A DNA stretch of 32,000 nt from Thermodesulfobacteriota bacterium (GTDB lineage Bacteria; Desulfobacterota; WTBG01; JAGOGO01): assembly GCA_026625185.1 (NCBI GenBank), contig CP113000.1, positions 2,445,622 through 2,477,621 on the forward strand, written 5' to 3'. How positions within the stretch are numbered: position 1 is the first letter of the stretch; every line of letters starts with the position of its first letter. Both the position numbers and the translations under genes were made by a program. The notes under the pieces were generated by a model that was not told the origin of the DNA, made no database searches, and was given only the letters and a program-made list of their open reading frames with translations. This document shows, in pieces, positions 2,947-29,607 of this stretch.

Positions 2947-3750
2947 CTATCTTAGCGCCAGGCGGCCCCGGTAATCAATTTTCATGCGGGGATAAAATTG
3001 AGGATGGAGATAACGTAAGATGGTTTGATCTGAACCACAGCCTTTAGGAAACTCAGGGAGCTGCTCAAGGAGTTTTCCACTTTGTCTCAGTTTTTTATAT
3101 TTTTCCCCTATGAGATCGTTGTCAGTTACGTAAAATAGTGCGGCTTGCAATACCTCTCGTAAAAAAGCAGTTCGGCCAAAAAAGACTCCTGCATTAATAT
3201 ACCACTGTGAATAAAATCCGTTATCTTTGGCAATCTGGTCAGTCCAAATTTTTTGTTCGGGCATATACTTATAGTTGTCTTTGGATTTTGTTCGAGAAAA
3301 AAGCAGGTCACAGTTTTCCTCTTCCAAATACCGGATTGCTTTTTCTGGATTATCCCGCAACACCGAATCATTACTGTCACAGTAAAGGATATAGTCTGCT
3401 TTGCAGTCAGCATTTTTAAGATAGTTGAGTAACATACTTATTTTTTTAGTCTGGCGCCACGGTTCACCGGCATTAAGCTTAAGGACATGGTAGTAAGTTA
3501 TTCCCACATATTGGAGACTTAATTCCATAATTGGAGGATGTGCATAGTTGTGAAGCAAGAGGATGGTTATTTCCGGCGGACAACGCAATTTTCCTTTAGC
3601 ATGTCCGCAGAGTAAAGGGAGGGCAAGCGAAGGAGGATTTTCGGTAAGCTTGCGTCGATGAATGACAAGGTGATCCCAGGTGCGTCTTTTAAAAAAGGCC
3701 CATACGATATTTTTTATTTTTTTAAAGATTTTAATAATCGGTTGAGTCAT
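2947..3750 (-). CDS. putative nucleotide-diphospho-sugar transferase-like protein
   Basis: This is a 267-aa ORF. It contains a DxD-like motif, ILYCDSNDSVL, and INAGVFFGRTAFL, which recall GT-A-fold transferases. It sits beside the glycosyltransferase pseudogene and ends in TAG. Confidence 0.5.
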   Translation of the reverse strand: MTQPIIKIFKKIKNIVWAFFKRRTWDHLVIHRRKLTENPPSLALPLLCGHAKGKLRCPPEITILLLHNYAHPPIMELSLQYVGITYYHVLKLNAGEPWRQTKKISMLLNYLKNADCKADYILYCDSNDSVLRDNPEKAIRYLEEENCDLLFSRTKSKDNYKYMPEQKIWTDQIAKDNGFYSQWYINAGVFFGRTAFLREVLQAALFYVTDNDLIGEKYKKLRQSGKLLEQLPEFPKGCGSDQTILRYLHPQFYPRMKIDYRGRLALR

Positions 3751-3799
3751 AAGAAAAATTTCTCCACGCCCTGACTTAAAACCATCAAAAAGATATCAG

Positions 3800-12959: not shown

Positions 12960-13075
12960 TTTAATTGCTTTTTTAAAAAACTTGAAAAAATTTATTGCAT
13001 AATTTTTTAAAATAAAGTAAATGGAGTGCTTAAATAATTTTTATACAATTTTACTGCAAATAACAATTTTTTTAT

Positions 13076-13148
<73 letters not shown>

Positions 13149-13475
13149 TCAGTATTTTTAATGACTTAGCTTAATTGTGTTAGGTCCTTTTTTGTTACCC
13201 GACCATTTTGTCCCCACTTTTTAAGTTAAGTATTGTGAAAAGAGGGTAGGGTAAAACTTATACCTCTTCCTAAACAAAGCATTCACTCCTTACCGGCACT
13301 ACTTCAAGGGACTGGGTTTCCAAAAGGGTGTAGACCCCCCCCTAAGACCCCAGTCACCCCTTCGTTTGAGTGTAGACTGGACCAATTTTACACAGGGGGG
13401 AAATTTATGAGGGCTAGCCATTTTTTGTTATTAGGTAAGCATGGGCGCCGAAATAAAGCGCTTAACCTATTCCCT

Positions 13476-14012
13476 TCACTCATCCGGAGAGTACGATAAT
13501 ATTTCATCCCTGAATCGTGCCGGGGCTGTGTAAGGGTGAAGCTCGCTCTTTGTCCTATCAAGGATATGCCGCACACAAACTCCTGCCGCCTTCAGGTAAT
13601 CGGCAATTAACGACCGATGACACCTCCACCAGACTGCTTCCGCGCACATGACGACCGTTCGTTTCCGAGAGGCCAGATCCAACAGTCGTTTGACTCCTGC
13701 ACGAAACTCTTTTGTCTCCATGTAGTCCGCATAGCCGCGAAATGATTCGTTGCGCCAGAGGGTGTTTTGCGAGTCCGGACGCGGCTGCCTTCGCCCGCCG
13801 AGTTCGGGCAGCAGAACATACTCTATTCCAACTCCTGTGAGTGAAATGCGAAGTGCGCCTTGATTGAAGTGTGGGTATTTACGGGAAGCCGGGACACGTC
13901 TCACATCAGCCAGAGATTCGATCTTATTATTGGTGAGCAACTCGAAAAATTCGCAAAGGGTTCGAGTTGAATGCCCCACCGTCCAAATAGTCAACTCCTC
14001 TTCATTCATCAT
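13476..14012 (-). CDS. DUF488 domain protein (copy 1)
   Basis: The 178-aa ORF with TIWTVGHSTRTLCEFFELL...IESLADVRRVPASRKYPHFNQ...VVMCAEAVWWRCHRSLIADYL is the DUF488 signature as I recall it. It is more GC-rich than the host backbone. Confidence 0.85.
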   Translation of the reverse strand: MMNEEELTIWTVGHSTRTLCEFFELLTNNKIESLADVRRVPASRKYPHFNQGALRISLTGVGIEYVLLPELGGRRQPRPDSQNTLWRNESFRGYADYMETKEFRAGVKRLLDLASRKRTVVMCAEAVWWRCHRSLIADYLKAAGVCVRHILDRTKSELHPYTAPARFRDEILSYSPDE

Positions 14013-14101
14013 ATAAAATCGCTGAGTGTCCGTCTAAAAATGTTTGTATGGTTTTCCTAGGATACATAGGTAAATGATTATATTTGGCATAAGACCCCTT
14101 T

Positions 14102-14136
14102 TTAAGGATTTTATAATTTTACGGACGGCCTCTTTC
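14102..14136 (-). promoter_or_regulatory. 35-nt motif upstream of the DUF488 gene, shared with the 96-aa gene upstream region
   Basis: TTAAGGATTTTATAATTTTACGGACGGCCTCTTTC matches 14679-14713 (TTAAGAATTTTATAATTTTATGGACGTCCCCTTTC) at 31 of 35 positions. The minus strand carries a TATAAAAT -10-like box. The motif is duplicated at 18355-18389 in copy 2. Confidence 0.45.
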
Positions 14137-14328
14137 CTTCTTCCAAGGAGCCGCCCCCCCTTCGGTCAACGGCGAGGGTCAGGTTCAGCGAGCTTGTGAG
14201 AGCCGTAACCTGGACTTTCTGGTTGGATATCTGTCTATCCTGTTTTCATCTTTTGTGAAGCATCCCGTCCAGAACCAATTCTAATCATAGAAATGCATCT
14301 ACCGGACTCCTCTGAATGTGCGCTCTTG

Positions 14329-14619
14329 TCATTGCTGAGCAACAGTGCCCGCCAAGCGGGCGGAAATCTCCGACAACTTCCGTATAATAATCCAGTTCTG
14401 CTTCACCACGGCAGCGAGATATCCGACTGTTGCCTGGTCTGCAGCATTGGCGAACGAAAACGCCATTCCCGCTTTCATCAGGCTGAGGCCAGTGAGATCA
14501 GTGGCGATTTCCTCGATCATCGCCACGTCTGCTGCGTCAATCTCCGTTAGGTGATACTTCTGTATGAATTCGTTCTTCTTGCGCTCGATTTTTTTCTCCT
14601 TGCTCTCAAACAGTCCCAT
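14329..14619 (-). CDS. 96-aa hypothetical protein (copy 1)
   Basis: A good RBS (GGAAGAAAGGAGGATCAC) lies upstream of the ATG. The product is MGLFESKEKKIERKKNEFIQKYHLTEIDAADVAMIEEIATDLTGLSLMKAGMAFSFANAADQATVGYLAAVVKQNWIIIRKL. I recall a QNWIIIR-type motif from uncharacterised small proteins but cannot name a family. Confidence 0.6.
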   Translation of the reverse strand: MGLFESKEKKIERKKNEFIQKYHLTEIDAADVAMIEEIATDLTGLSLMKAGMAFSFANAADQATVGYLAAVVKQNWIIIRKLSEISARLAGTVAQQ

Positions 14620-14678
14620 GTGATCCTCCTTTCTTCCTGCCTAACAATGCTTATATTGATCCGTATAAGATCACATTG

Positions 14679-14713
14679 TTAAGAATTTTATAATTTTATG
14701 GACGTCCCCTTTC
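14679..14713 (-). promoter_or_regulatory. 35-nt motif upstream of the 96-aa gene (paralogous to 14102-14136)
   Basis: See 14102-14136. It lies 60-95 nt upstream of the ATG at 14619 and is duplicated at 18932-18966. Confidence 0.45.
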
Positions 14714-14819
14714 TTCTCCCGTCCCCTTTCTTCTCCTTTTCATATTATTTCCTCCTTCTCTCATTAAACTATTCTCTAAGCTTTCCTGCCACTTCCCATT
14801 ATTTCTCTAAACAGCCAAT

Positions 14820-14855
14820 AAAAAAGCCGAACTTTCCCTTTACGGATAATTCGGC
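14820..14855 (-). terminator. candidate Rho-independent terminator (minus strand)
   Basis: The minus strand reads GCCGAATT-loop-AGTTCGGC followed by TTTTTTAT. The loop is long, so this is only a moderate call. Confidence 0.4.
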
Positions 14856-14934
14856 CTATGCCATCGCTTATATAGCATTTTTTCCTTCCTCTATTGGTAA
14901 CCTTCTTGTTTAATGAAGGTTATTTTATTCAACG

Positions 14935-14953
14935 CTTTAATCCTCGGAAAGTC
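14935..14953. repeat. 19-bp perfect inverted repeat, left arm
   Basis: CTTTAATCCTCGGAAAGTC is the exact reverse complement of 16844-16862. Confidence 0.9.
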
Positions 14954-15054
14954 AACACTTTTAATTTTCTTTATAACCTATAGGCCTGAACGGAGTCCTT
15001 CTCGGGTCGGGAAATTCTACCGGGAGTTTTTCCTGAAAAGAATTCTTTTTAAAA
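14952..15054 (+). repeat. R element copy R1 (about 100-nt noncoding repeat family)
   Basis: Positions 14963-15054 differ from 16981-17072 at only 3 of 92 positions. The core is CGGAGTCCTTCTCGGG and the copy ends in the palindrome AAAAGAATTCTTTT plus T/A runs. Confidence 0.85.
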
Positions 15055-15083
15055 TTTATCAGGCGGAGAGGGGCAAGAAAAAG

Positions 15084-15112
15084 AAATAAAAAAACCCGGT
15101 TGAGAGCCGGGC
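15084..15112 (-). terminator. Rho-independent terminator (minus strand)
   Basis: The minus strand reads GCCCGGCTCTCAACCGGG followed by TTTTTTTATTT. It lies inside the doubtful ORF 15059..15340. Confidence 0.7.
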
Positions 15113-15465
15113 AACATTCAGAGAAATAAAATCGGGGCTAAAATCAGGCGTACACGTGGTTAAAAAGTCCGGGACTATATCATTATAAGGGAAGGGGGGA
15201 TTGGGGTTTTTAGCCCCCAGGACTATGCGGAAATCGCACCTAACTAAATTCTTTTTTAAGAGGCCATGAAGTGGAGTTTGGTCATTTTCCAAAAATACAA
15301 CACTCAGGGCTCGTTTGGTTTTTTTCAACCGTTTTTCCAATTCTTTTACAACCTCTTAAATTTCTCCTTGTTTTTTTTCACCTTATGCTAAAGAGACAGA
15401 CCCGTGAAAGAAGCAATTAAAAAAATTTTATTTGTATAATATTTTATTTGACAATTAATTTTATT

Positions 15466-15480
15466 TTGTAATAATTACAA
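15466..15480. promoter_or_regulatory. perfect 7-1-7 palindrome resembling Fur-family operators
   Basis: TTGTAAT-A-ATTACAA has the same architecture as the B. subtilis Fur/PerR/Zur boxes (for example Zur TCGTAATNATTACGA and PerR TTATAATNATTATAA). It ends 2 nt before the ATG of the Fur-family gene and overlaps a TTGACA(15448)-17 nt-ATAATT promoter-like arrangement. Confidence 0.6.
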
Positions 15481-15482
15481 AT

Positions 15483-15911
15483 ATGGCACCTAACATAACT
15501 AAAAAGATTAAAGAAATTGCTTTGAGGGTTACCCCACAGCGCCACGCCATCTTAAAGTTCCTTGAGGGAAATGTGACCCACCCTTCGGCAGAAAACATTC
15601 ATCATAAATTGTTAAAAAAAATGCCAAATATATCCTTTACGACGGTCTATAACACATTGTCAAAGCTTGTGGAGGCAGGAAAGATTCAAGAAGTTTATAT
15701 CGACCCGAATAAGAAAAGATTCGATCCCCGTATAGATCCTCACCATCACTTTTATTGTAAGGTTTGCGGGAAAGTCTTCGACGTAGGTTATGATGCCCCT
15801 TTTTCAGTGATTATAAATCCTCTGAATACAAAAAAACTAGATGGGCACCAGGTTGATGAAATACAGATTTATATTAAAGGACTGTGTAAGGATTGCAGAA
15901 GTAAGCGATGA
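15483..15911 (+). CDS. Fur-family metalloregulator (Fur/PerR/Zur subtype not resolvable)
   Basis: The 142-aa ORF contains RVTPQRHAILKFLEGNVTHPSAENIHHKL...ISFTTVYNTLSKLVEAGKI (a wHTH), HHHFYCKVCGKVFDV and a C-terminal CKDC (CxxC...CxxC zinc site). It has no Shine-Dalgarno sequence and may be leaderless. Confidence 0.85.
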   Translation: MAPNITKKIKEIALRVTPQRHAILKFLEGNVTHPSAENIHHKLLKKMPNISFTTVYNTLSKLVEAGKIQEVYIDPNKKRFDPRIDPHHHFYCKVCGKVFDVGYDAPFSVIINPLNTKKLDGHQVDEIQIYIKGLCKDCRSKR

Positions 15912-16251
15912 GACAAGCGAGTACGGTCATCGTTTGTGAACGGGGAGGAATTTTGAAGGGAGGGGGAGAAGAAAAAAAGAGATTAGAGCCTTTTCCCTTA
16001 GACTAACCCCAATTTTATCTCTATCGGGAAATTGGTTTCTCTCTTATTTAGGGTTGATCAGATAGTTCAATGGACATAATAGAAAATGAGGGAATCGAGA
16101 CCATGTTTTCTTCCTGTATCGTTGGAGGAAAGAGATTGCAGACAAAAAAAGGGGATGAACTTATTAAGCATTATCAATCACGGCAACAGGCAACATCAAA
16201 GGTAGAATAGAACAAATCACAAAACATTAACCCTGACGGAATGTTCAAAAC

Positions 16252-16683
16252 ATGAAAAGAAAAGTAATCAAAAAAAGAACCCTTTGGTCTCGGGAAGTTT
16301 TTAGTTGCATTTTGGGACGGGAACTTGCCCGGACAGAACGGAGTAATCAGGTTTTTTCAGTGGTTGAGTTCGGCATCGGCGACTTTGAAACCAATATAGA
16401 GTTTGGAAACCGAATATTTCAGGTGGTTGCCAAGGAGCTTCGTTTTACTGACGAAGTGGGGTGGTTCAAGGATAATCATATCGGGGTTTTGCTCTATAAC
16501 ACTTCTTTTGAGGGAGCCCGAATTTTTGCTGAAAGAATCTGTGAGGTGCTTCCAACCCCACCAAATTTTTTCGGTTTCAAGATACATACCTTCCCAATTG
16601 AAAGGCAAATCCAAGATGGGGCGAACTATCAAGTCCCACAAGAGCGACAAGCCGTCTTATCGTCTCTTTTTGCTTCTAACTAA
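16252..16683 (+). CDS. small degenerate GGDEF-like domain protein
   Basis: The 143-aa ORF has SREVFSCILGRELARTERSNQVFSVVEFGIGDF...VAKELRFTDEVGWFKDNHIGVLLYNTSFEGARIFAERI, which follows the GGDEF-domain layout, but the GG(D/E)EF site is replaced by KDNHI. There is no clear RBS. Confidence 0.55.
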   Translation: MKRKVIKKRTLWSREVFSCILGRELARTERSNQVFSVVEFGIGDFETNIEFGNRIFQVVAKELRFTDEVGWFKDNHIGVLLYNTSFEGARIFAERICEVLPTPPNFFGFKIHTFPIERQIQDGANYQVPQERQAVLSSLFASN

Positions 16684-16797
16684 TGGTTCAAATTCAAGAA
16701 TGAAAACTTAAGTTGAAATTATTTTAATAACCCTTTTTTTCTTAGAATCTTTGATTTTATAACTCGCTTTTCATTTCTACAGTTTCCTCAAAAGTTA

Positions 16798-16826
16798 CCC
16801 TCGCAGAAATGCGGCGGTTTTATTTC
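16798..16826 (+). terminator. candidate terminator after the GGDEF-like gene
   Basis: The hairpin is CCTCGCA-GAAA-TGCGGCGG followed by TTTTATTT. It is imperfect. The same hairpin sequence occurs at 24048-24065. Confidence 0.4.
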
Positions 16827-16843
16827 CCAGAATATTTTTTTTG

Positions 16844-16862
16844 GACTTTCCGAGGATTAAAG
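16844..16862. repeat. 19-bp perfect inverted repeat, right arm
   Basis: GACTTTCCGAGGATTAAAG is the reverse complement of 14935-14953. Confidence 0.9.
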
Positions 16863-16969
16863 TGACCAGCCCTCGAAAGATGTACCACATTTAGAGTTAG
16901 GATTCTACCAGTTAATGTTTTTCAATATTACCTGATTTCAGGTTCCGGAGAAAATCCAAAAAGATAAAC

Positions 16970-17072
16970 TCAACCCTATTAATTTTCTTTATACCCTATC
17001 CGCCTGAACGGAGTCCTTCTCGGGTCGGGAAATTCTACCGGGAGTTTTTCCTGAAAAGAATTCTTTTTAAAA
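16970..17072 (+). repeat. R element copy R2
   Basis: It is about 97% identical to R1 over 92 nt and has the same orientation. Confidence 0.85.
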
Positions 17073-17139
17073 ACCAAGAAGCCTCGTTTGACCAACTCAG
17101 CAACCATTGTTAGAGAAAACAATAATGATAGTTCCTTTT

Positions 17140-17224
17140 GAATTTTTACCCCCGCAGTGCAGGGGATGAAACCATATGATGGGGTAAACGCTCGGTTGGC
17201 TCCCCCCTACCATACCCATCGAAC
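17140..17224 (+). repeat. X block copy X1 (conserved noncoding block of the island right arm)
   Basis: GAATTTTTACCCCCGCAGTGCAGGGGATGAAACC...CGGTTGGCTCCCCCCTACC aligns colinearly with 22492-22576. My by-eye estimate is 70-75% identity with one 1-nt indel. Confidence 0.75.
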
Positions 17225-17359
17225 TTCTATCCTTGCTACCATTTTGCTACCATAACAAGCCAAAACAGGAAACAACAAGGGACAACAAGAGAAAGTTAAA
17301 TTATTAATTTCTTTCTTATTCTTCCTTCCTGTTATCCCTTATTATGTACTTGCAAAGAC

Positions 17360-17401
17360 CTGAAAATCCGTGTGTCGACAGTTCGATTCTGTCCCTCGGC
17401 A
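17360..17401 (+). repeat. att-like direct repeat: exact copy of the last 42 nt of tRNA-Phe (anticodon loop to discriminator)
   Basis: CTGAAAATCCGTGTGTCGACAGTTCGATTCTGTCCCTCGGCA is identical to 13107-13148. There is no 5' half, so it is not a functional tRNA. Confidence 0.95.
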
Positions 17402-17728
17402 TCAGTATTTTTAATGACTTAGCTTAATTGTGTTAGGTCCTTTTTTGTTACCCGACCATTTTGTCCCCACTTTTTAAGTTAAGTATTGTGAAAAGAGGGT
17501 AGGGTAAAACTTATACCTCTTCCTAAACAAAGCATTCACTCCTTACCGGCACTACTTCAAGGGACTGGGTTTCCAAAAGGGTGTAGACCCCCCCCTAAGA
17601 CCCCAGTCACCCCTTCGTTTGAGTGTAGACTGGACCAATTTTACACAGGGGGGAAATTTATGAGGGCTAGCCATTTTTTGTTATTAGGTAAGCATGGGCG
17701 CCGAAATAAAGCGCTTAACCTATTCCCT

Positions 17729-18265
17729 TCACTCATCCGGAGAGTACGATAATATTTCATCCCTGAATCGTGCCGGGGCTGTGTAAGGGTGAAGCTCGCT
17801 CTTTGTCCTATCAAGGATATGCCGCACACAAACTCCTGCCGCCTTCAGGTAATCGGCAATTAACGACCGATGACACCTCCACCAGACTGCTTCCGCGCAC
17901 ATGACGACCGTTCGTTTCCGAGAGGCCAGATCCAACAGTCGTTTGACTCCTGCACGAAACTCTTTTGTCTCCATGTAGTCCGCATAGCCGCGAAATGATT
18001 CGTTGCGCCAGAGGGTGTTTTGCGAGTCCGGACGCGGCTGCCTTCGCCCGCCGAGTTCGGGCAGCAGAACATACTCTATTCCAACTCCTGTGAGTGAAAT
18101 GCGAAGTGCGCCTTGATTGAAGTGTGGGTATTTACGGGAAGCCGGGACACGTCTCACATCAGCCAGAGATTCGATCTTATTATTGGTGAGCAACTCGAAA
18201 AATTCGCAAAGGGTTCGAGTTGAATGCCCCACCGTCCAAATAGTCAACTCCTCTTCATTCATCAT
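17729..18265 (-). CDS. DUF488 domain protein (copy 2, identical)
   Basis: The translation is identical to 13476..14012. Confidence 0.85.
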   Translation of the reverse strand: MMNEEELTIWTVGHSTRTLCEFFELLTNNKIESLADVRRVPASRKYPHFNQGALRISLTGVGIEYVLLPELGGRRQPRPDSQNTLWRNESFRGYADYMETKEFRAGVKRLLDLASRKRTVVMCAEAVWWRCHRSLIADYLKAAGVCVRHILDRTKSELHPYTAPARFRDEILSYSPDE

Positions 18266-18581
18266 ATAAAATCGCTGAGTGTCCGTCTAAAAATGTTTGT
18301 ATGGTTTTCCTAGGATACATAGGTAAATGATTATATTTGGCATAAGACCCCTTTTTAAGGATTTTATAATTTTACGGACGGCCTCTTTCCTTCTTCCAAG
18401 GAGCCGCCCCCCCTTCGGTCAACGGCGAGGGTCAGGTTCAGCGAGCTTGTGAGAGCCGTAACCTGGACTTTCTGGTTGGATATCTGTCTATCCTGTTTTC
18501 ATCTTTTGTGAAGCATCCCGTCCAGAACCAATTCTAATCATAGAAATGCATCTACCGGACTCCTCTGAATGTGCGCTCTTG

Positions 18582-18872
18582 TCATTGCTGAGCAACAGTG
18601 CCCGCCAAGCGGGCGGAAATCTCCGACAACTTCCGTATAATAATCCAGTTCTGCTTCACCACGGCAGCGAGATATCCGACTGTTGCCTGGTCTGCAGCAT
18701 TGGCGAACGAAAACGCCATTCCCGCTTTCATCAGGCTGAGGCCAGTGAGATCAGTGGCGATTTCCTCGATCATCGCCACGTCTGCTGCGTCAATCTCCGT
18801 TAGGTGATACTTCTGTATGAATTCGTTCTTCTTGCGCTCGATTTTTTTCTCCTTGCTCTCAAACAGTCCCAT
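18582..18872 (-). CDS. 96-aa hypothetical protein (copy 2, identical)
   Basis: The translation is identical to 14329..14619. Confidence 0.6.
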   Translation of the reverse strand: MGLFESKEKKIERKKNEFIQKYHLTEIDAADVAMIEEIATDLTGLSLMKAGMAFSFANAADQATVGYLAAVVKQNWIIIRKLSEISARLAGTVAQQ

Positions 18873-19342
18873 GTGATCCTCCTTTCTTCCTGCCTAACAA
18901 TGCTTATATTGATCCGTATAAGATCACATTGTTAAGAATTTTATAATTTTATGGACGTCCCCTTTCTTCTCCTATCTTCCCTTCCTAAAAATCAAATAAA
19001 AATTTATTCCTGAAATTTCATGCTTACGTTATACGATGTTTTGCTTTTATAGTAAGTGCTTAAAGAAGGGAAGCCGAAAAACGAGGTTCGCCAGAGCTTA
19101 AGAAGGGCTTTTCAAGGCGAAGGTTATTTTTGGTTTTTGTCTTACAAAAAAATTTACAAAATTAACCTCATATAGACAGATATATAAAATTATTGTAGAT
19201 TTTAATTTTACAGGGTACAATTAACCATGCCTTGATGGAAAAACGACACTATTTCCTTTGAACCACCCGGGACAGAACCGAATGATCCGTAATTTCATTG
19301 ACCCGGCGTTTTTCCGAATCCGCATTTTTTAAGGGAGTAGTC

Positions 19343-21055
19343 ATGCCCAAAAAGCCTGCGAACCTGATTTACGCGGTGGATGAAAATCCGCCTGTGGGGA
19401 TTACCCTGCTCCAGGGAATTCAACACGTTTTTGTTTTGGCGGTCTATTTCATCTTTCCCGTTATCGTCGTCAATTCGGTAAACGGCACGAATGAGGAGGC
19501 CGCAACCATAATCAAGATGTCCATGATCGTCATGGGGTTGACCACGATTATTCAGGCGCTTTCCAAGGGACCTGTGGGCTCCGGCTATCTGGCCCCTGAC
19601 GGAAATGGCCCCGCCTACCTGTCCTCCGCCATGCTGGCCGCCAAAACCGGGGGGATATCTTTGATCTTCGGCATGACCCTCGTCAGCGCCTGTTTCAAGG
19701 CCGTCTTCTCCCGCCTGGTGAACCGCCTGCAGTTCCTATTTCCACCGGAAGTGGTCGGCCTCGTCGTCACCATGGTGGGAATTGAAATCATTCCTTTGGG
19801 CATTACACGGTTTTTCGGCCTGCAGCAATCCGGTGGCGCCATCGACCCCGGTGTTTTCCTGGTAGCCATGGCTACCTATGCGACAATGGTGGGCATCAAT
19901 ATCTGGGGTAAAGGCTGGCTTCGTCTTTATCCTATCCTCATCGGCATGGCCGTCGGCTATTTGTCATCGTATCTGTCCGGCATTCTCACCCCGAGTGACC
20001 TGCGCCACGTTACCGCCGAATCATGGATTTCCATGCCGCACTTCGCAGCCTTCGGCTGGAGTTTCGATATTTCGTTGTTGTTTCCGTTTTTAATCGCCAG
20101 CTTGTGCTCCTCCCTTAAAACCATCGGTGACTTGACTATGTGCCAGAAGATCAACGACAGTGAGTGGAAACGCTCTGATATGAAGTCCATCGGCCGGGGC
20201 ATCCTGGCCGACTCGCTGGGCGACACCTTGAGCGGGCTGATCGGCAGTCTTGGCCAGACAACCTCATCCAGCAATATCGGTTTCTCCATGGCCACCGGGG
20301 TTACCAGCCGCCGGATCGCCTTTGCCATCGGGGGCATCCTCTGCCTGCTGGCCTTTTTGCCCAAGCTGGCCCAAGTCTTTGTGATCATGCCCCGGCCGGT
20401 CATGGGCGCCATCCTGATCTTTGTGGCCAACTTCATGATTCTGGCTGGCATTCAGATTATCGCCACCCGAATGCTGGACGTTCGGAAAATTTTTGTCATC
20501 GGTACCTCCGTCATCTTCGGTCTTTCGGTCTTTTTATTCCCTAAGGCTTACAGCAACGTGCCCGCACTCCTACACCCGATTTTTAGCTCGGCCTTGTCGC
20601 TCGCCACCATTTCCGTGATCGTTTTGAATCTCATCTTTCGGATCGGCATTGCAAAGCGCAACGGCTTGGTTCTCGACACGAAAGAAAAAGAAGTTATGGA
20701 GACGCTCAGAACCTTTATGGAAAATCAAGGCGGTGCATGGGGTGCCCGACGAGAGGTGATCAAGCGGGCGGAATACGCCTTGAGCGAGTTCATGGAATCC
20801 CTCATCGGTTTGCAGCTGACCGAAGGCCCGGTAAGCCTGGAGGTAAGCTTTGAGGAGATGAGCCTGGATTTGAGTTTAAATTATAAAGGGCGACCGCTGG
20901 AATTTCCACCCCAAGTCCCCAGTGCTGCTGATTTGCTGGAAGACAAGACCGCAGTTTTCCGACTCTCCGGTTTTATTATCAAAAATTACGTGGATCGGAT
21001 CAAGACCGTCGAGAAAGACGGCAGATGCCGAGTTATGTTTCATTTCGACCATTGA
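19343..21055 (+). CDS. NCS2 (xanthine/uracil/vitamin C) family permease with about 120-aa C-terminal cytoplasmic extension
   Basis: I prefer the start at MPKKPANL because an AAGGGAG RBS lies 6 nt upstream. The product is multi-TM with a nucleobase-permease-like N-terminus (LLQGIQHVFVLAV) and mid-region (GDLTMCQK, TTSSSNIGF). The C-terminal soluble tail is LVLDTKEKEVMETLRTFMENQGGAWGAR...CRVMFHFDH. The gene is clearly more GC-rich than its surroundings. Confidence 0.85.
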   Translation: MPKKPANLIYAVDENPPVGITLLQGIQHVFVLAVYFIFPVIVVNSVNGTNEEAATIIKMSMIVMGLTTIIQALSKGPVGSGYLAPDGNGPAYLSSAMLAAKTGGISLIFGMTLVSACFKAVFSRLVNRLQFLFPPEVVGLVVTMVGIEIIPLGITRFFGLQQSGGAIDPGVFLVAMATYATMVGINIWGKGWLRLYPILIGMAVGYLSSYLSGILTPSDLRHVTAESWISMPHFAAFGWSFDISLLFPFLIASLCSSLKTIGDLTMCQKINDSEWKRSDMKSIGRGILADSLGDTLSGLIGSLGQTTSSSNIGFSMATGVTSRRIAFAIGGILCLLAFLPKLAQVFVIMPRPVMGAILIFVANFMILAGIQIIATRMLDVRKIFVIGTSVIFGLSVFLFPKAYSNVPALLHPIFSSALSLATISVIVLNLIFRIGIAKRNGLVLDTKEKEVMETLRTFMENQGGAWGARREVIKRAEYALSEFMESLIGLQLTEGPVSLEVSFEEMSLDLSLNYKGRPLEFPPQVPSAADLLEDKTAVFRLSGFIIKNYVDRIKTVEKDGRCRVMFHFDH

Positions 21056-21895: not shown

Positions 21896-22281
21896 TGTTT
21901 TACCCTTTCTTTCATAAAGTTGTTTTTGATTGCTCCAATTTCCAATTAAATTCTTGGCCCGCATGGAAATCTTCTGCAGGTTATTTGGACTTAAAAAACC
22001 TTCTCGACAAAAAAATTTCCGGCCATAAATCGAGGAAAAGAGGGTTTAAGGATATTTTAACAATAAACCTTTACCCTTTAAAAAAAATAAGGTGAATTAT
22101 GTATTTTTAGAAAAAAAATATGGAATTTTAGAGATATGGATAAAGAAAGGATAAAATTTCTAAATCATCCTTGCATGGCTTTTAATTTCTAAGAAAATTT
22201 ATAAATTGAATAGTCGTAGGATAGTGTGTCTTTGAAAAGAATACAGACTAACTCCCTCAATGATAGTTAGTTTTGATTCCA

Positions 22282-22366
22282 TTTATATCCTAATCGCCGT
22301 TCTAACGTCCCTCGCGGGGCGGGAAAATCCCCTGAAGGTTTTTCGGAAAAACATGCTTTTTTAAAA
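22282..22366 (+). repeat. R element copy R4 (diverged)
   Basis: It aligns gap-free with R2 at 56 of 85 positions (my count). The core is ACGTCCCTCGCGGG and the copy ends in TTTTTTAAAA. Confidence 0.65.
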
Positions 22367-22731: not shown

Positions 22732-22772
22732 CTGAAAATCCGTGTGTCGACAGTTCGATTCTGTCCCTCGCA
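22732..22772 (+). repeat. att-like direct repeat: third, slightly degenerate copy of the tRNA-Phe 3' part
   Basis: CTGAAAATCCGTGTGTCGACAGTTCGATTCTGTCCCTCGCA equals 13107-13148 with one G deleted in the acceptor 3' strand. The next 64 nt or so are about 75% identical to the sequence following copies 1 and 2. Confidence 0.9.
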
Positions 22773-22847
22773 TTAATAGGTTAAATGACTTATCTCAATT
22801 GGGCAAAGTCCTTTTTTGCTTTGGGTCCATTTTGTCTCAACTCTTTG

Positions 22848-28146: not shown

Positions 28147-29367
28147 TCATTTATCAAACACCTTAAGCGACGGAAGGATTGCTTTTGTCTTTTCGCAAAA
28201 ACAATCAACCACCCGCTGAAGCCATAATACGCCTTTCTCAGAAACATGAGCGGGTAACGCCTGTATAACAGCAATATAATGTGCCCCGCTTCCGCTCCCG
28301 GCTTTATCGAAAACAAAGAGAAAGTCATCGCGGTATTTCTCAACAAGATTATCCCTTATGCCTTCTGCAAACAACCCTTCTATTTCCGAAAACTTATCAT
28401 AGAACTGGTTCCTTCCAGCCGGGCCCTTTGTTTTTTCGGCCAGCATCTGCAAACGCTTCACCCGTTCTTTTTTCGCAAGGGTCAGTTTATCAAGCAACCC
28501 GGAAAAAATAAGCTGGCCGAATTCCTGTGAATCAAGAAATGCACGCCTCACATAAATATACCACTCCTCCAAGGCCATAAGATTTGCGATATACATAATA
28601 TTATTCTCTACTATCCGGCGAAGGTTGAAATAGGCTTTGGGCTTAAAACTAATCGATTTTCCGGAGGGTGTGTTCCCGACGATAAGTTTGTTGTCCTCAG
28701 TAAAATCTTTCCTCAGAACGGAGTTAGCCGCCACCACATTGCCGTATCCCATACGTAAAGGGCCGACGATGCCTCCTTGACCGCCAAGAAAGATGGCCGG
28801 CTGGTTAAGCATCACACCCCTTGGTACATCACCGATCAGTGATGCCGTTGTTTTGTCCCCATCCGGTGTAAAGTTAAAATGAATATAGGAACTGCCCACC
28901 TCACTGTGGTCCTTGCGGCTCCTACCTCCGGCCATTAAACAATCACAAAAATTGATCAGACTACCGAGGGTCACAAAAGGGAAAAGAATGGTCTGTTTTA
29001 AACCGACACAGTGCGCTCCGTTGGCCTCCTCTTCAAGGATACAGCCTTCACGTACGTGAGCCCCCAAACCCATATTTGCCTTTTCCAGAAAGACCGACTT
29101 GGTGAAATACCCGCCCTTCAGCTCAACCATTGGTCCTAACTGGCAATTTTCTATTGTAACCGGACCTTCGTATCCAATCTGCACCCCAGTTGACATGACA
29201 GTTTGCTCGCCATAAATTCTGCAGCCAGGATAAATCTTGACACCTTTTGCCGAGATTCGATCAACTCTTACCTCGTCGCCCAGATCTATGGTTGAGGGAT
29301 TTGGAATATCAATTCCTTTCTGCATCAACTGAACAACCTTATCATAGCACCGGGGTTGATTATCCAT
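28147..29367 (-). CDS. left-handed beta-helix (hexapeptide) acyltransferase-like protein resembling only the C-terminal domain of GlmU, with a long helical C-terminal extension
   Basis: This is a 406-aa ORF. Residues of about 20-240 parallel the GlmU acetyltransferase domain (GAHVREGCILEEEANGAHCVGLKQTILFP...SSYIHFNFTPDGDKTTASLIGDVPRGVMLNQPAIFLGGQGGIVGPLRMGYGNVVAANSVL). There is no N-terminal pyrophosphorylase domain. The last 170 aa or so are unassigned. The RBS is AAGGAGGAAAGG. Confidence 0.65.
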   Translation of the reverse strand: MDNQPRCYDKVVQLMQKGIDIPNPSTIDLGDEVRVDRISAKGVKIYPGCRIYGEQTVMSTGVQIGYEGPVTIENCQLGPMVELKGGYFTKSVFLEKANMGLGAHVREGCILEEEANGAHCVGLKQTILFPFVTLGSLINFCDCLMAGGRSRKDHSEVGSSYIHFNFTPDGDKTTASLIGDVPRGVMLNQPAIFLGGQGGIVGPLRMGYGNVVAANSVLRKDFTEDNKLIVGNTPSGKSISFKPKAYFNLRRIVENNIMYIANLMALEEWYIYVRRAFLDSQEFGQLIFSGLLDKLTLAKKERVKRLQMLAEKTKGPAGRNQFYDKFSEIEGLFAEGIRDNLVEKYRDDFLFVFDKAGSGSGAHYIAVIQALPAHVSEKGVLWLQRVVDCFCEKTKAILPSLKVFDK

Positions 29368-29440
29368 CCTTTCCTCCTTAAAGAAACTTGTGTATCAATA
29401 ACGCTATCATGATTGAATAGTTAGAATCAGTTAACCAACC

Positions 29441-29491
29441 AATTTCTTTCTTATTCTTTCTACTTGTTATCCCCTGTTAGGCATTTGCAAG
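29441..29491 (+). repeat. sequence related to the extreme right end of island E1
   Basis: AATTTCTTTCTTATTCTT (18/18), TGTTATCCC (9/9) and TTGCAAG are shared, colinearly, with 17306-17357, which abuts the tRNA fragment in E1. Confidence 0.55.
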
Positions 29492-29493
29492 CA

Positions 29494-29607
29494 ACTGATG
29501 GCAGAGCGCAGAAACTTCTTGATGTCTCGCTACTAAATCGCCTTGGCTGGAAGGCAAAAATCACCTTAAAGCAGAGTATCGCCACAACCTACGGTTGGTA
29601 TACGTAA
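29494..29607 (+). pseudogene. 3'-terminal fragment (about 37 codons) of a GDP-L-fucose synthase (fcl/wcaG)-like epimerase/reductase gene
   Basis: TDGRAQKLLDVSLLNRLGWKAKITLKQSIATTYGWYT* matches the conserved C-terminus (DGtPrKLlDvs.l..LGW......l..gi..TY.W) of Fcl enzymes. The rest of the gene is absent. Confidence 0.65.

Follow-up and report, generated by a model that had tools for sequence, protein, structure and literature searches.

We analysed a 32,000-nt stretch of the chromosome of a Thermodesulfobacteriota bacterium (assembly GCA_026625185.1, contig CP113000.1, positions 2,445,622 to 2,477,621, hereafter the window), in which two small genes, one encoding a DUF488-family protein and the other a 96-aa protein, lie on the minus strand beside a tRNA-Phe gene. 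Both are preceded by the same 35-nt motif, and an earlier note, made from the letters of the DNA alone, had suggested that they are co-regulated and a candidate pair for a maintenance, addiction, defence or recombination-accessory function. Our results showed that this motif is the core of a lineage-wide repeat that stands before dozens of unrelated genes, so that the two genes do not form a system dedicated to each other. It is nearly certain both that the repeat is dispersed and that no conserved pair exists. With a probability of roughly 60%, the block that holds the two genes consists of two independent single-gene transcription units in a variable region by tRNA-Phe, each behind a copy of the repeat, whose most likely role is that of a promoter module. 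The two genes are probably co-expressed as members of a large and heterogeneous set, and not as a couple.

Two genes beside tRNA-Phe each lie behind a copy of one repeat

The two genes, both on the minus strand and separated by a spacer of 316 bp (14013-14328), are part of a 1613-bp block that is present twice in the window. The first copy begins in the anticodon loop of tRNA-Phe and runs through the 3′ half of the tRNA, 325 nt of non-coding DNA, the DUF488 gene, a first repeat copy (element A), the spacer, the 96-aa gene and a second repeat copy (element B). The features are as follows.

13075-13150, plus strand: tRNA-Phe (GAA), found with ARAGORN and as Rfam RF00005 (75 bits); its 3′ part, starting at 13107, forms the first of the att-like direct repeats
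13107-14719: 1613-bp block, copy 1 (100% identical to copy 2)
13476-14012, minus strand: DUF488-family protein, 178 aa (PF04343, E=5e-34)
14073-14136, minus strand: element A, degenerate repeat copy before the DUF488 gene (nhmmer 45 bits, E=2.5e-12; 4 nt fewer than the consensus)
14177-14215: imperfect GC-rich hairpin GGTCAGGTT...AACCTGGAC within the 316-bp spacer, not followed by a T-run
14329-14619, minus strand: 96-aa three-helix protein of the phage family phrog_16443 (E=2.5e-23), with a strong Shine-Dalgarno sequence
14639-14736, minus strand: element B, near-consensus repeat copy before the 96-aa gene (repeat at 14639-14712 plus a purine-rich 5′ tract; 70.7 bits, E=2.4e-20)
17360-18972: 1613-bp block, copy 2, with the DUF488 gene at 17729-18265 (minus strand), the 96-aa gene at 18582-18872 (minus strand) and the two elements at 18326-18389 and 18892-18965
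22732-22846, plus strand: third and older att-like fragment from the 3′ part of tRNA-Phe: 39 nt match exactly, followed by 82% similarity over 116 nt, and the acceptor arm has lost 1 nt

Comparison of the two upstream regions confirmed the 35-nt motif, with 31 of 35 positions identical between 14102-14136 and 14679-14713. The identity is 33/38 between 14099-14136 and 14676-14713, and when one gap is allowed the similarity reaches 54 nt at 83% (BLAST E=1.7e-6). A 26-nt pattern of the motif, with up to 3 mismatches, matched only these sites and their duplicates, where 0.00 matches were expected from 100 shuffles. In the window, the DUF488 and 96-aa genes alone bear the repeat, each being duplicated along with the block. 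The ATG of the DUF488 gene lies 53 nt past element A, and that of the 96-aa gene 19 nt past element B. A 17-nt direct repeat, cgtcccctttcttctcc (14703-14719 and 14720-14736), marks the 5′ edge of the repeat element, and it is precisely there that the perfect duplication stops. A similar doubled edge, GGGGACATCC-TATAGC-GTCC, was seen at about 3750-3785 of a public metagenome contig (L059; such contigs and loci are labelled L here).

The spacer had been described as carrying GC-rich hairpins. One such hairpin does exist, at 14177-14215, and the folding of the whole spacer is no better than that of shuffled sequence (z=-0.61). The spacer held no site scored as terminator-like, and an Rfam scan of 13100-15100 at E<=1 returned only the tRNA. 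A role of the hairpin as a terminator or non-coding RNA is unsupported by the fold z-score, the terminator scan and Rfam alike, and the hairpin is probably incidental.

The repeat is dispersed before unrelated genes in the host lineage

An exact 24-nt core pattern matched 35 public metagenome contigs, and a hidden Markov model (HMM) built from these copies, with 77 positions, recovered about 50 distinct copies, including diverged ones beyond the reach of the pattern that keep the same blocks; because the sampling was seeded by an exact-match pattern, both the copy numbers and the degree to which the core is conserved are biased. Many of the copies reach 60-80 bits. The aligned copies share about 75 nt, GGGGAC-GTCCATAAAATTATAAAATTCTTAACAAC-GGGGTC-TTATACGGATCAATATAAACATTGTTRGG, preceded by a purine-rich tract (20-25 nt, 72% purines), so that the full repeat spans about 75-95 nt, with complete divergence on both sides.

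A co-oriented open reading frame (ORF) starts within 80 nt downstream of 37 of 48 copies, and the genes found there are unrelated to each other: DUF188/YaiI, Tag (3-methyladenine glycosylase), PEMT, flavin reductase, ADP-ribosylglycohydrolase, DUF4145, a GlsB/YmgE-like membrane protein and DUF488. The downstream gene is the regular partner of the repeat, while the upstream neighbour may be co-oriented, divergent or absent (as at 18973-19297 of the window). Copies also occur as arrays of two or three in the same orientation, 400-1300 nt apart. An orthologue of the DUF488 gene on L059 carries the same upstream repeat; it has a RelA/SpoT-like gene on one side and a PEMT unit on the other, and no tRNA close by. 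On L030 (2035-2250), a SelW/Rdx-like ORF behind a repeat copy has in-frame TGA codons near its N-terminus and may be a selenoprotein.

Housekeeping proteins encoded on the repeat contigs fall into clusters of at least 90% identity with proteins of the 3.3-Mb genome and of Thermodesulfobacteriota metagenome-assembled genomes (MAGs), which places the repeat in the host's own lineage at genus level. It was not found at two distant DUF488 loci (L064 and L066), nor at the GC-rich locus of a 96-aa homologue (L010). A phage-borne origin was considered and rejected: the left half of the repeat had no match in IMG/VR, and the pattern of the right half gave two chance matches of 20-30 nt. The right half alone also stands just upstream of genes, for instance at L059 8166-8134, 27 nt before an ORF.

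The two proteins belong to known families that do not occur together

Both proteins are members of known, uncharacterised families. The DUF488 protein matched positions 2-121 of the 121 positions of the PF04343 profile with 117.9 bits (cut-off 22.2), and gave a weak match to the "active DUF488-N3" subclade (PF22751). More than 8000 homologues were found, up to 89% identical, hundreds of them metagenomic at 67-89%; the PDB held no sequence relative, and a literature search yielded no established function. In all three loci examined outside the host lineage, the DUF488 gene is followed by an Hva1_TUDOR (PF11160) gene, and in two proteins (P0063 and P0086) the two domains are fused. Hva1_TUDOR neighbours of DUF488 were located at L059 4476-4583, L060 6620-6833, L064 4370-4597 and L066 8621-8836. 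In the host's own lineage this partner has been truncated (L059) or frameshifted (L060/L061), and in the window it is absent, with no remnant detected by tblastn in 13100-13560. The DUF488 gene may have been acquired together with its Hva1_TUDOR partner, which would later have been lost.

The DUF488 protein also matched the PADLOC models PDC-M45B (E=9e-34), PDC-M45C (E=1e-9) and PDC-M19A. In the PDC-M45 system components A, B and C are adjacent; the 96-aa, PerR-like, 143-aa and 116-aa ORFs around the window gene had no PDC match, and no component of PDC-M19 or other component of PDC-M45 adjoins DUF488. The PerR-like protein gave a marginal PADLOC match to Csa3 (E=0.003). No complete defence system is present. 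The window gene shares with DUF488-Hva1_TUDOR, PDC-M45 and PDC-M19 systems a full-length DUF488 domain, and differs from them in having no TUDOR partner and no other component, and in standing behind the lineage repeat.

For the 96-aa protein, residues 1-90 aligned with positions 1-93 of the 100 positions of phrog_16443, and all 123 of its aligned relatives matched this family too. Close relatives are few, and a profile search gave about 385 representatives at 50% identity; no match was obtained in Pfam, NCBIfam or PADLOC. A profile search of the PDB returned designed helical proteins only. The AlphaFold2 model built from 123 sequences was acceptable (pLDDT 80, three helices), the one built from 6 sequences was poor (pLDDT 61), and Foldseek searches of the PDB and BFVD gave nothing below E=1. 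The protein shares with prophage members of the family, such as XHB26857.1 of Streptococcus phage phiGBSVK-E2_GBSInt6.1 and the region around SpyM3_1352 of phage 315.5, a size of about 95-100 aa, a full-length HMM match and the common core ...SFANAADQATVGYL..QNWIIIR.

The family has a conserved genomic position. In six of six genome loci of Firmicutes and Tenericutes, the homologue has a repressor (cI/LexA-type or ImmA-associated) on one side and an integrase (tyrosine or serine) on the other, the three genes sharing one orientation, and the same order was found in the two annotated Streptococcus prophages examined. In all 13 matching prophage records the match is on the minus strand, at 0.7-2.5 kb from the start of the record in 12 of them. 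Because the family stands directly beside the integrase in prophages, an origin of the window gene in an integrative element is plausible. The window gene itself has DUF488 and non-coding DNA as neighbours, with no repressor upstream and no integrase downstream; unlike the prophage genes, it has the host-lineage repeat as its 5′ region and is itself followed by DUF488. In a Vulcanimicrobiota MAG (L011 8001-16268), a 96-aa homologue was seen at one end of a putative integrative element with SEC-C, HTH_36 and resolvase genes; a tyrosine integrase lies at the opposite end, an order unlike the repressor-homologue-integrase order of Firmicutes.

Base composition sets both genes apart from the window. 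As the earlier note had stated, they are richer in GC: the DUF488 gene has 51.8% and the 96-aa gene 51.2%, about 8 points more than the window (43.2%). The GC content at third codon positions is 0.54 and 0.64, respectively, compared with 0.38-0.39 for rpoD and dnaG. The closest relative of the 96-aa gene (77% identical in amino acids, 80% in nucleotides) resides in a genome of about 60% GC, in agreement with a foreign origin.

None of about 12 independent loci with 96-aa homologues, nor any of the Streptococcus prophages, had a DUF488 gene, and none of six DUF488 loci had a 96-aa homologue. The genes lie 316 bp apart, each with its own upstream element, and no toxin-antitoxin family was recognised in Pfam, NCBIfam or PADLOC. 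The proposal of a dedicated maintenance, addiction or defence pair was therefore essentially refuted: homologues of the two proteins never stand together outside this organism, the motif was not found at the distant homologous loci L010, L064 and L066, and fold and sequence searches of the 96-aa protein gave nothing related to nucleic acids or addiction. The companion proposal, a promoter or operator shared by the two genes, held in part, as the motif does occupy a promoter-like position before both of them, and failed in that the motif is lineage-wide and not private to the pair.

The repeat resembles a putative mobile promoter

The consensus repeat contains an A/T-rich, UP-like stretch, a -35-like TTAACA and, further on, a -10-like TATAAA/TATAAT. 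In element A the corresponding sequence is TTAAAA-17-TATAAT (14105->14077), scored 10/12 in the promoter scan; the canonical 17-bp spacing results from the 4-nt deletion relative to the consensus. We give the promoter function of the repeat about even odds. In our proposal, the repeat would be reused as a "mobile" promoter or 5′ regulatory module through which horizontally acquired genes come to be transcribed; expression of both window genes, and of dozens of others, would then depend on the factor that recognises it. The units [repeat + phrog_16443 gene] and [repeat + DUF488] would have been deposited beside tRNA-Phe, in a region that may rearrange by way of its att-like repeats as well as the dispersed repeat itself.

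Among known kinds of sequence, the repeat most resembles the putative mobile promoters (PMPs) of Matus-Garcia, Nijveen & van Passel (2012), defined by at least 80% identity over at least 50 nt upstream of non-homologous genes and linked to no mobile element or RNA family already known (PMC3575422). The two window copies, 83% identical over 54 nt and followed by unrelated genes, have this degree of similarity, and the likeness extends to the occurrence of highly similar non-coding sequence before non-homologous genes within one genome or lineage. The repeat differs from PMPs in the size of its family, which has dozens of copies whereas most PMP families are pairs, and in its co-oriented arrays in variable regions and the 21-bp spacing of its consensus hexamers; its promoter activity is putative.

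Several observations weigh against a promoter. The consensus spacing is TTAACA-21-TATAAA and becomes canonical only in deletion variants such as the DUF488 copy; with 21 bp between the hexamers, an ordinary sigma-70 promoter is improbable unless a helper protein or a different sigma factor takes part. The promoter of the host's own PerR-like gene has a 16-bp spacer. The 75-95 conserved nucleotides of the repeat exceed what a core promoter needs, and the HMM search also recovered its left half and its right half apart from each other. The permuted gene units described below fit a recombination function as well, and the bias of the pattern-seeded sampling bears on the apparent conservation of the core.

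Other binding sites were also compared with the repeat. A PerR/Fur box was rejected, the operator of the PerR-like gene, TTGTAATAATTACAA, being unlike the repeat, and sigma-54, sigma-28, sigma-32, extracytoplasmic function (ECF) sigma factor, MerR-type spacer operator and integration host factor (IHF) sites, judged by eye against consensus sequences, gave no convincing fit. At the level of structure, RNAalifold predicted 0 pairs for the repeat, and candidate stems had neither compensatory changes nor an excess of pairing over shuffles. The conservation of sequence rather than structure points to recognition by a protein on double-stranded DNA.

The tRNA-Phe region is variable and contains a perfect duplication

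The window is core chromosome, with serS, the RNase P RNA, tRNA-Met, rpoD, dnaG and opp permease genes, and this order is broken after tRNA-Phe. The last 39-44 nt of the tRNA gene are present three times as direct repeats (13107-13150, 17360-17403 and 22732-22770), which bound two tandem segments of 4253 and 5372 bp. Direct repeats of a tRNA 3′ part thus flank the inserted DNA, as is expected of a tRNA-targeting island. A segment of 2.6 kb follows the first block and carries a PerR-like gene of the Fur family together with a 143-aa ORF; one of 3.8 kb, with a nucleobase permease gene, follows the second. The 1-nt deletion and the 82% flank of the third att-like copy suggest repeated events at this tRNA.

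The conserved, tRNA-proximal module described in the earlier note was likewise found, as 1613 bp at 100% identity in a tRNA-Phe-linked variable region with partial tRNA repeats at its flanks. Block copy 1 is 99.6-100% identical to metagenome contigs L001-L009, and the block was seen only in this organism. The perfect duplication, which has the 3′ half of tRNA-Phe on one side and the 5′ edge of the repeat on the other, would be the product of a recent integration or recombination, and is not evidence for selection on a functional backbone.

A search for an enzyme that could act on this region was negative: in the window ORFs of at least 90 aa that were scanned, profiles gave no match to Phage_integrase, Resolvase or Recombinase, and tblastn with 8 recombinases gave none in 13-23 kb, the non-coding parts of the blocks included. 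Metagenome contigs of the same organism (L003-L006, against window 13089-19783) showed all four possible joins across the 1613-bp repeat. In L003 the X-end, the block and the X-start are joined, as expected of an excised circle or a tandem copy, and in L005 the Y-start and the block are joined to the 5′ part of the tRNA, by 18 nt only. The four joins in L003-L006 could be real excision products or assembly paths. An apparent divergence of L001 at the att boundary (17360) was rejected, as it is merely a scaffold N-gap.

The segments at tRNA-Phe recall two kinds of integrase-less island. Cis-mobilizable elements (CIMEs) of Streptococcus and tycheposon satellites of Prochlorococcus form tandem islands at one tRNA, each bounded by direct repeats of the tRNA 3′ part. 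The window shares with them the tandem segments, the tRNA 3′ repeats and the lack of an own recombinase; it differs in that no cognate integrase-bearing element was seen and mobility is putative. In addition, RecA-mediated recombination between the perfect 1613-bp repeats would explain the observed variants equally well.

Alternative readings of the repeat and the block

Because the repeat occurs in arrays with cassette-sized spacing and has TCTTAAC...GTTAGGC ends, we tested its likeness to integron attC sites. Most copies have TCTTAAC (RYYYAAC-like) and GTTAGGC/GTTGGGC (GTTRRRY-like) boxes; the first base of the R″ box is T and not R, R′ varies, and conservation runs well outside the boxes. 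As single-stranded DNA, the 47-nt core of 51 copies folded with a mean dG of -1.9 kcal/mol and a mean z of +0.13, only 6% of copies having z<-1.64, and the consensus gave -2.5 and -2.9 kcal/mol with z near 0. Since it has no hairpin, the repeat is not an integron attC site, an identity rejected on folding and covariation. The arrays do recall attC sites and CALINs, the clusters of attC sites without integrase, in the repeats between small, co-oriented and unrelated genes, the spacing, the box-like ends, the gene order permuted between relatives and the lack of a nearby integrase: two or three co-oriented copies are present, and no tyrosine recombinase was found in the window or the annotated flanks. 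They depart from attC in lacking the folded bottom-strand hairpin that defines it, in conserving sequence and not structure, in having a conserved part that reaches about 30-50 nt 5′ of the R″-like box, and in a candidate core of 45-47 nt, shorter than a typical attC.

The same data bear on a reading in which the repeat is mainly a recombination site, forming the junctions of an integron-like but hairpin-free gene-cassette system that moves single genes between arrays, the tRNA-Phe block being one such array. The units are indeed permuted, as SelW-like|GlsB|DUF188 in L030, SelW-like|160-aa in L044 and 88-aa|GlsB|AhpD-like in L039, and DUF188 is preceded by four different upstream genes across related genomes. 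Gene-order breaks fall at the repeat edges, each interval of an array holds one small gene, and the perfect duplication stops at the 5′ edge of the repeat, where L059 has a similar doubled edge. Arrays also sit in variable regions, since an array of repeat, Tag, repeat and 117-aa gene right after ychF in L049 (3400-5700) is replaced at the same locus of a host-like genome (L067/L068 8069-8800) by other genes and no repeat copy. Against these points stand the absence of a stable single-strand hairpin, of predicted pairs, of compensatory changes and of any integrase or other recombinase in the window or the annotated flanks. Moreover, BLAST breakpoints at repeat edges are expected merely from the similarity of the copies, and ordinary homologous recombination between copies could yield the same pattern. 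Pairwise identities were uninformative as to whether the repeat travels with the upstream or the downstream gene, and the permutation of units and the edge of the duplication fit either homologous recombination between dispersed copies or a site-specific process. We regard a repeat that serves mainly for recombination as rather unlikely. Equally tentative is its extension, that the ~95-nt repeat marks an undescribed organisation of the flexible genome of an uncultured Thermodesulfobacteriota genus, in which "promoter + gene" cassettes are swapped between arrays at the repeat, without attC hairpins or a linked integron integrase. Homologous recombination between copies, or a site-specific recombinase of unknown kind acting close to the GGACGTCC edge, would then bring about the exchange, and the tRNA-Phe block would be one array captured beside the att site.

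Three further explanations appear much less probable. The repeat could act at the RNA level as a shared 5′ leader and not as a promoter; in one such case, a weak A/U hairpin (UAUA-CGGAUCAA-UAUA) would show a GGA loop to a CsrA-like regulator. The right half of the repeat standing alone just upstream of genes agrees with this, as does a candidate inner stem in which 92% of cells are paired and several A-U pairs have changed to G-U. The leader is nevertheless improbable, as RNAalifold predicts no consensus structure, pairing and folding energies are at the level of shuffles, compensatory changes and an Rfam match are lacking, and a promoter would be needed further upstream, where an ORF often ends within 0-60 nt. 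That the tandem duplication is an assembly artefact merging strain variants, so that the "conserved module" is a single locus, is suggested by the difficulty of a perfect 1613-bp repeat for short reads, by the four joins and by the N-gap of L001 exactly at the repeat boundary. This too is improbable, and slightly more so, because the window lies in a 3.3-Mb contig, the X-side and Y-side junctions recur in L003, L004 and L006, which are independent contigs, and the diverged third att copy makes repeated events at this tRNA real. The least credible explanation is the co-regulated pair itself, as the backbone of a small tRNA-Phe element. It would account for the perfect duplication of a block that starts with an att-like tRNA half and has different cargo behind each copy, for the position of DUF488 between the phrog_16443 gene and the att site, where prophages have the integrase, for the DUF488 matches to the candidate defence models PDC-M45B/C and PDC-M19A, and for the circle- or tandem-like joins of L003. 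It conflicts with two families that never meet elsewhere, a motif that is not specific to the pair, the L059 orthologue of DUF488 with the same repeat, different neighbours and no tRNA, a 96-aa protein with no match in PADLOC, Pfam or NCBIfam, the lack of a toxin-antitoxin signature, and a block seen only in this organism.

If the block is read as two independent transcription units, each behind the dispersed repeat, the repeat itself is more interesting than the gene pair. Annotators should not take a shared upstream motif as a sign of functional coupling if that motif recurs throughout the genome. In an uncultured lineage related to sulfate reducers, this large family of promoter-like repeats, oriented towards horizontally acquired small genes, offers a concrete case in which to ask how foreign genes gain expression signals and whether repeated promoters drive cassette-like shuffling. 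The repeat family and the synteny of phrog_16443 are both worth following; with about 385 representatives at 50% identity and a strict repressor-homologue-integrase order, the latter family is a good candidate for work on the control of lysogeny or integration. The linkage of DUF488 with Hva1_TUDOR, by adjacency and by fusion, offers a way into the role of a widespread uncharacterised domain.

Other repeats and the PerR-like gene near the block

A second repeat family, of 107 nt, was observed at 14948-15054, 16966-17072 and 22260-22366 (94% and 61% identical). Its copies bracket a 2018-bp segment with the PerR-like gene and the 143-aa ORF; since contig L008 has no such segment, it represents an insertion/deletion polymorphism. 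The PerR-like, Fur-family gene (15483-15911) matched NCBIfam PerR models with E=1e-31, below the cut-off. At 15448-15480, the perfect 7-1-7 palindrome TTGTAATAATTACAA lies over the gene's own TTGACA-16-AATAAT promoter, and the gene is probably autoregulated. Finally, a stretch of 50-70 nt just before the second att copy (17294-17363) is 77-84% identical to 29429-29498, where it stands upstream of a 406-aa ORF (28147-29367), a second instance of a reused 5′ region.

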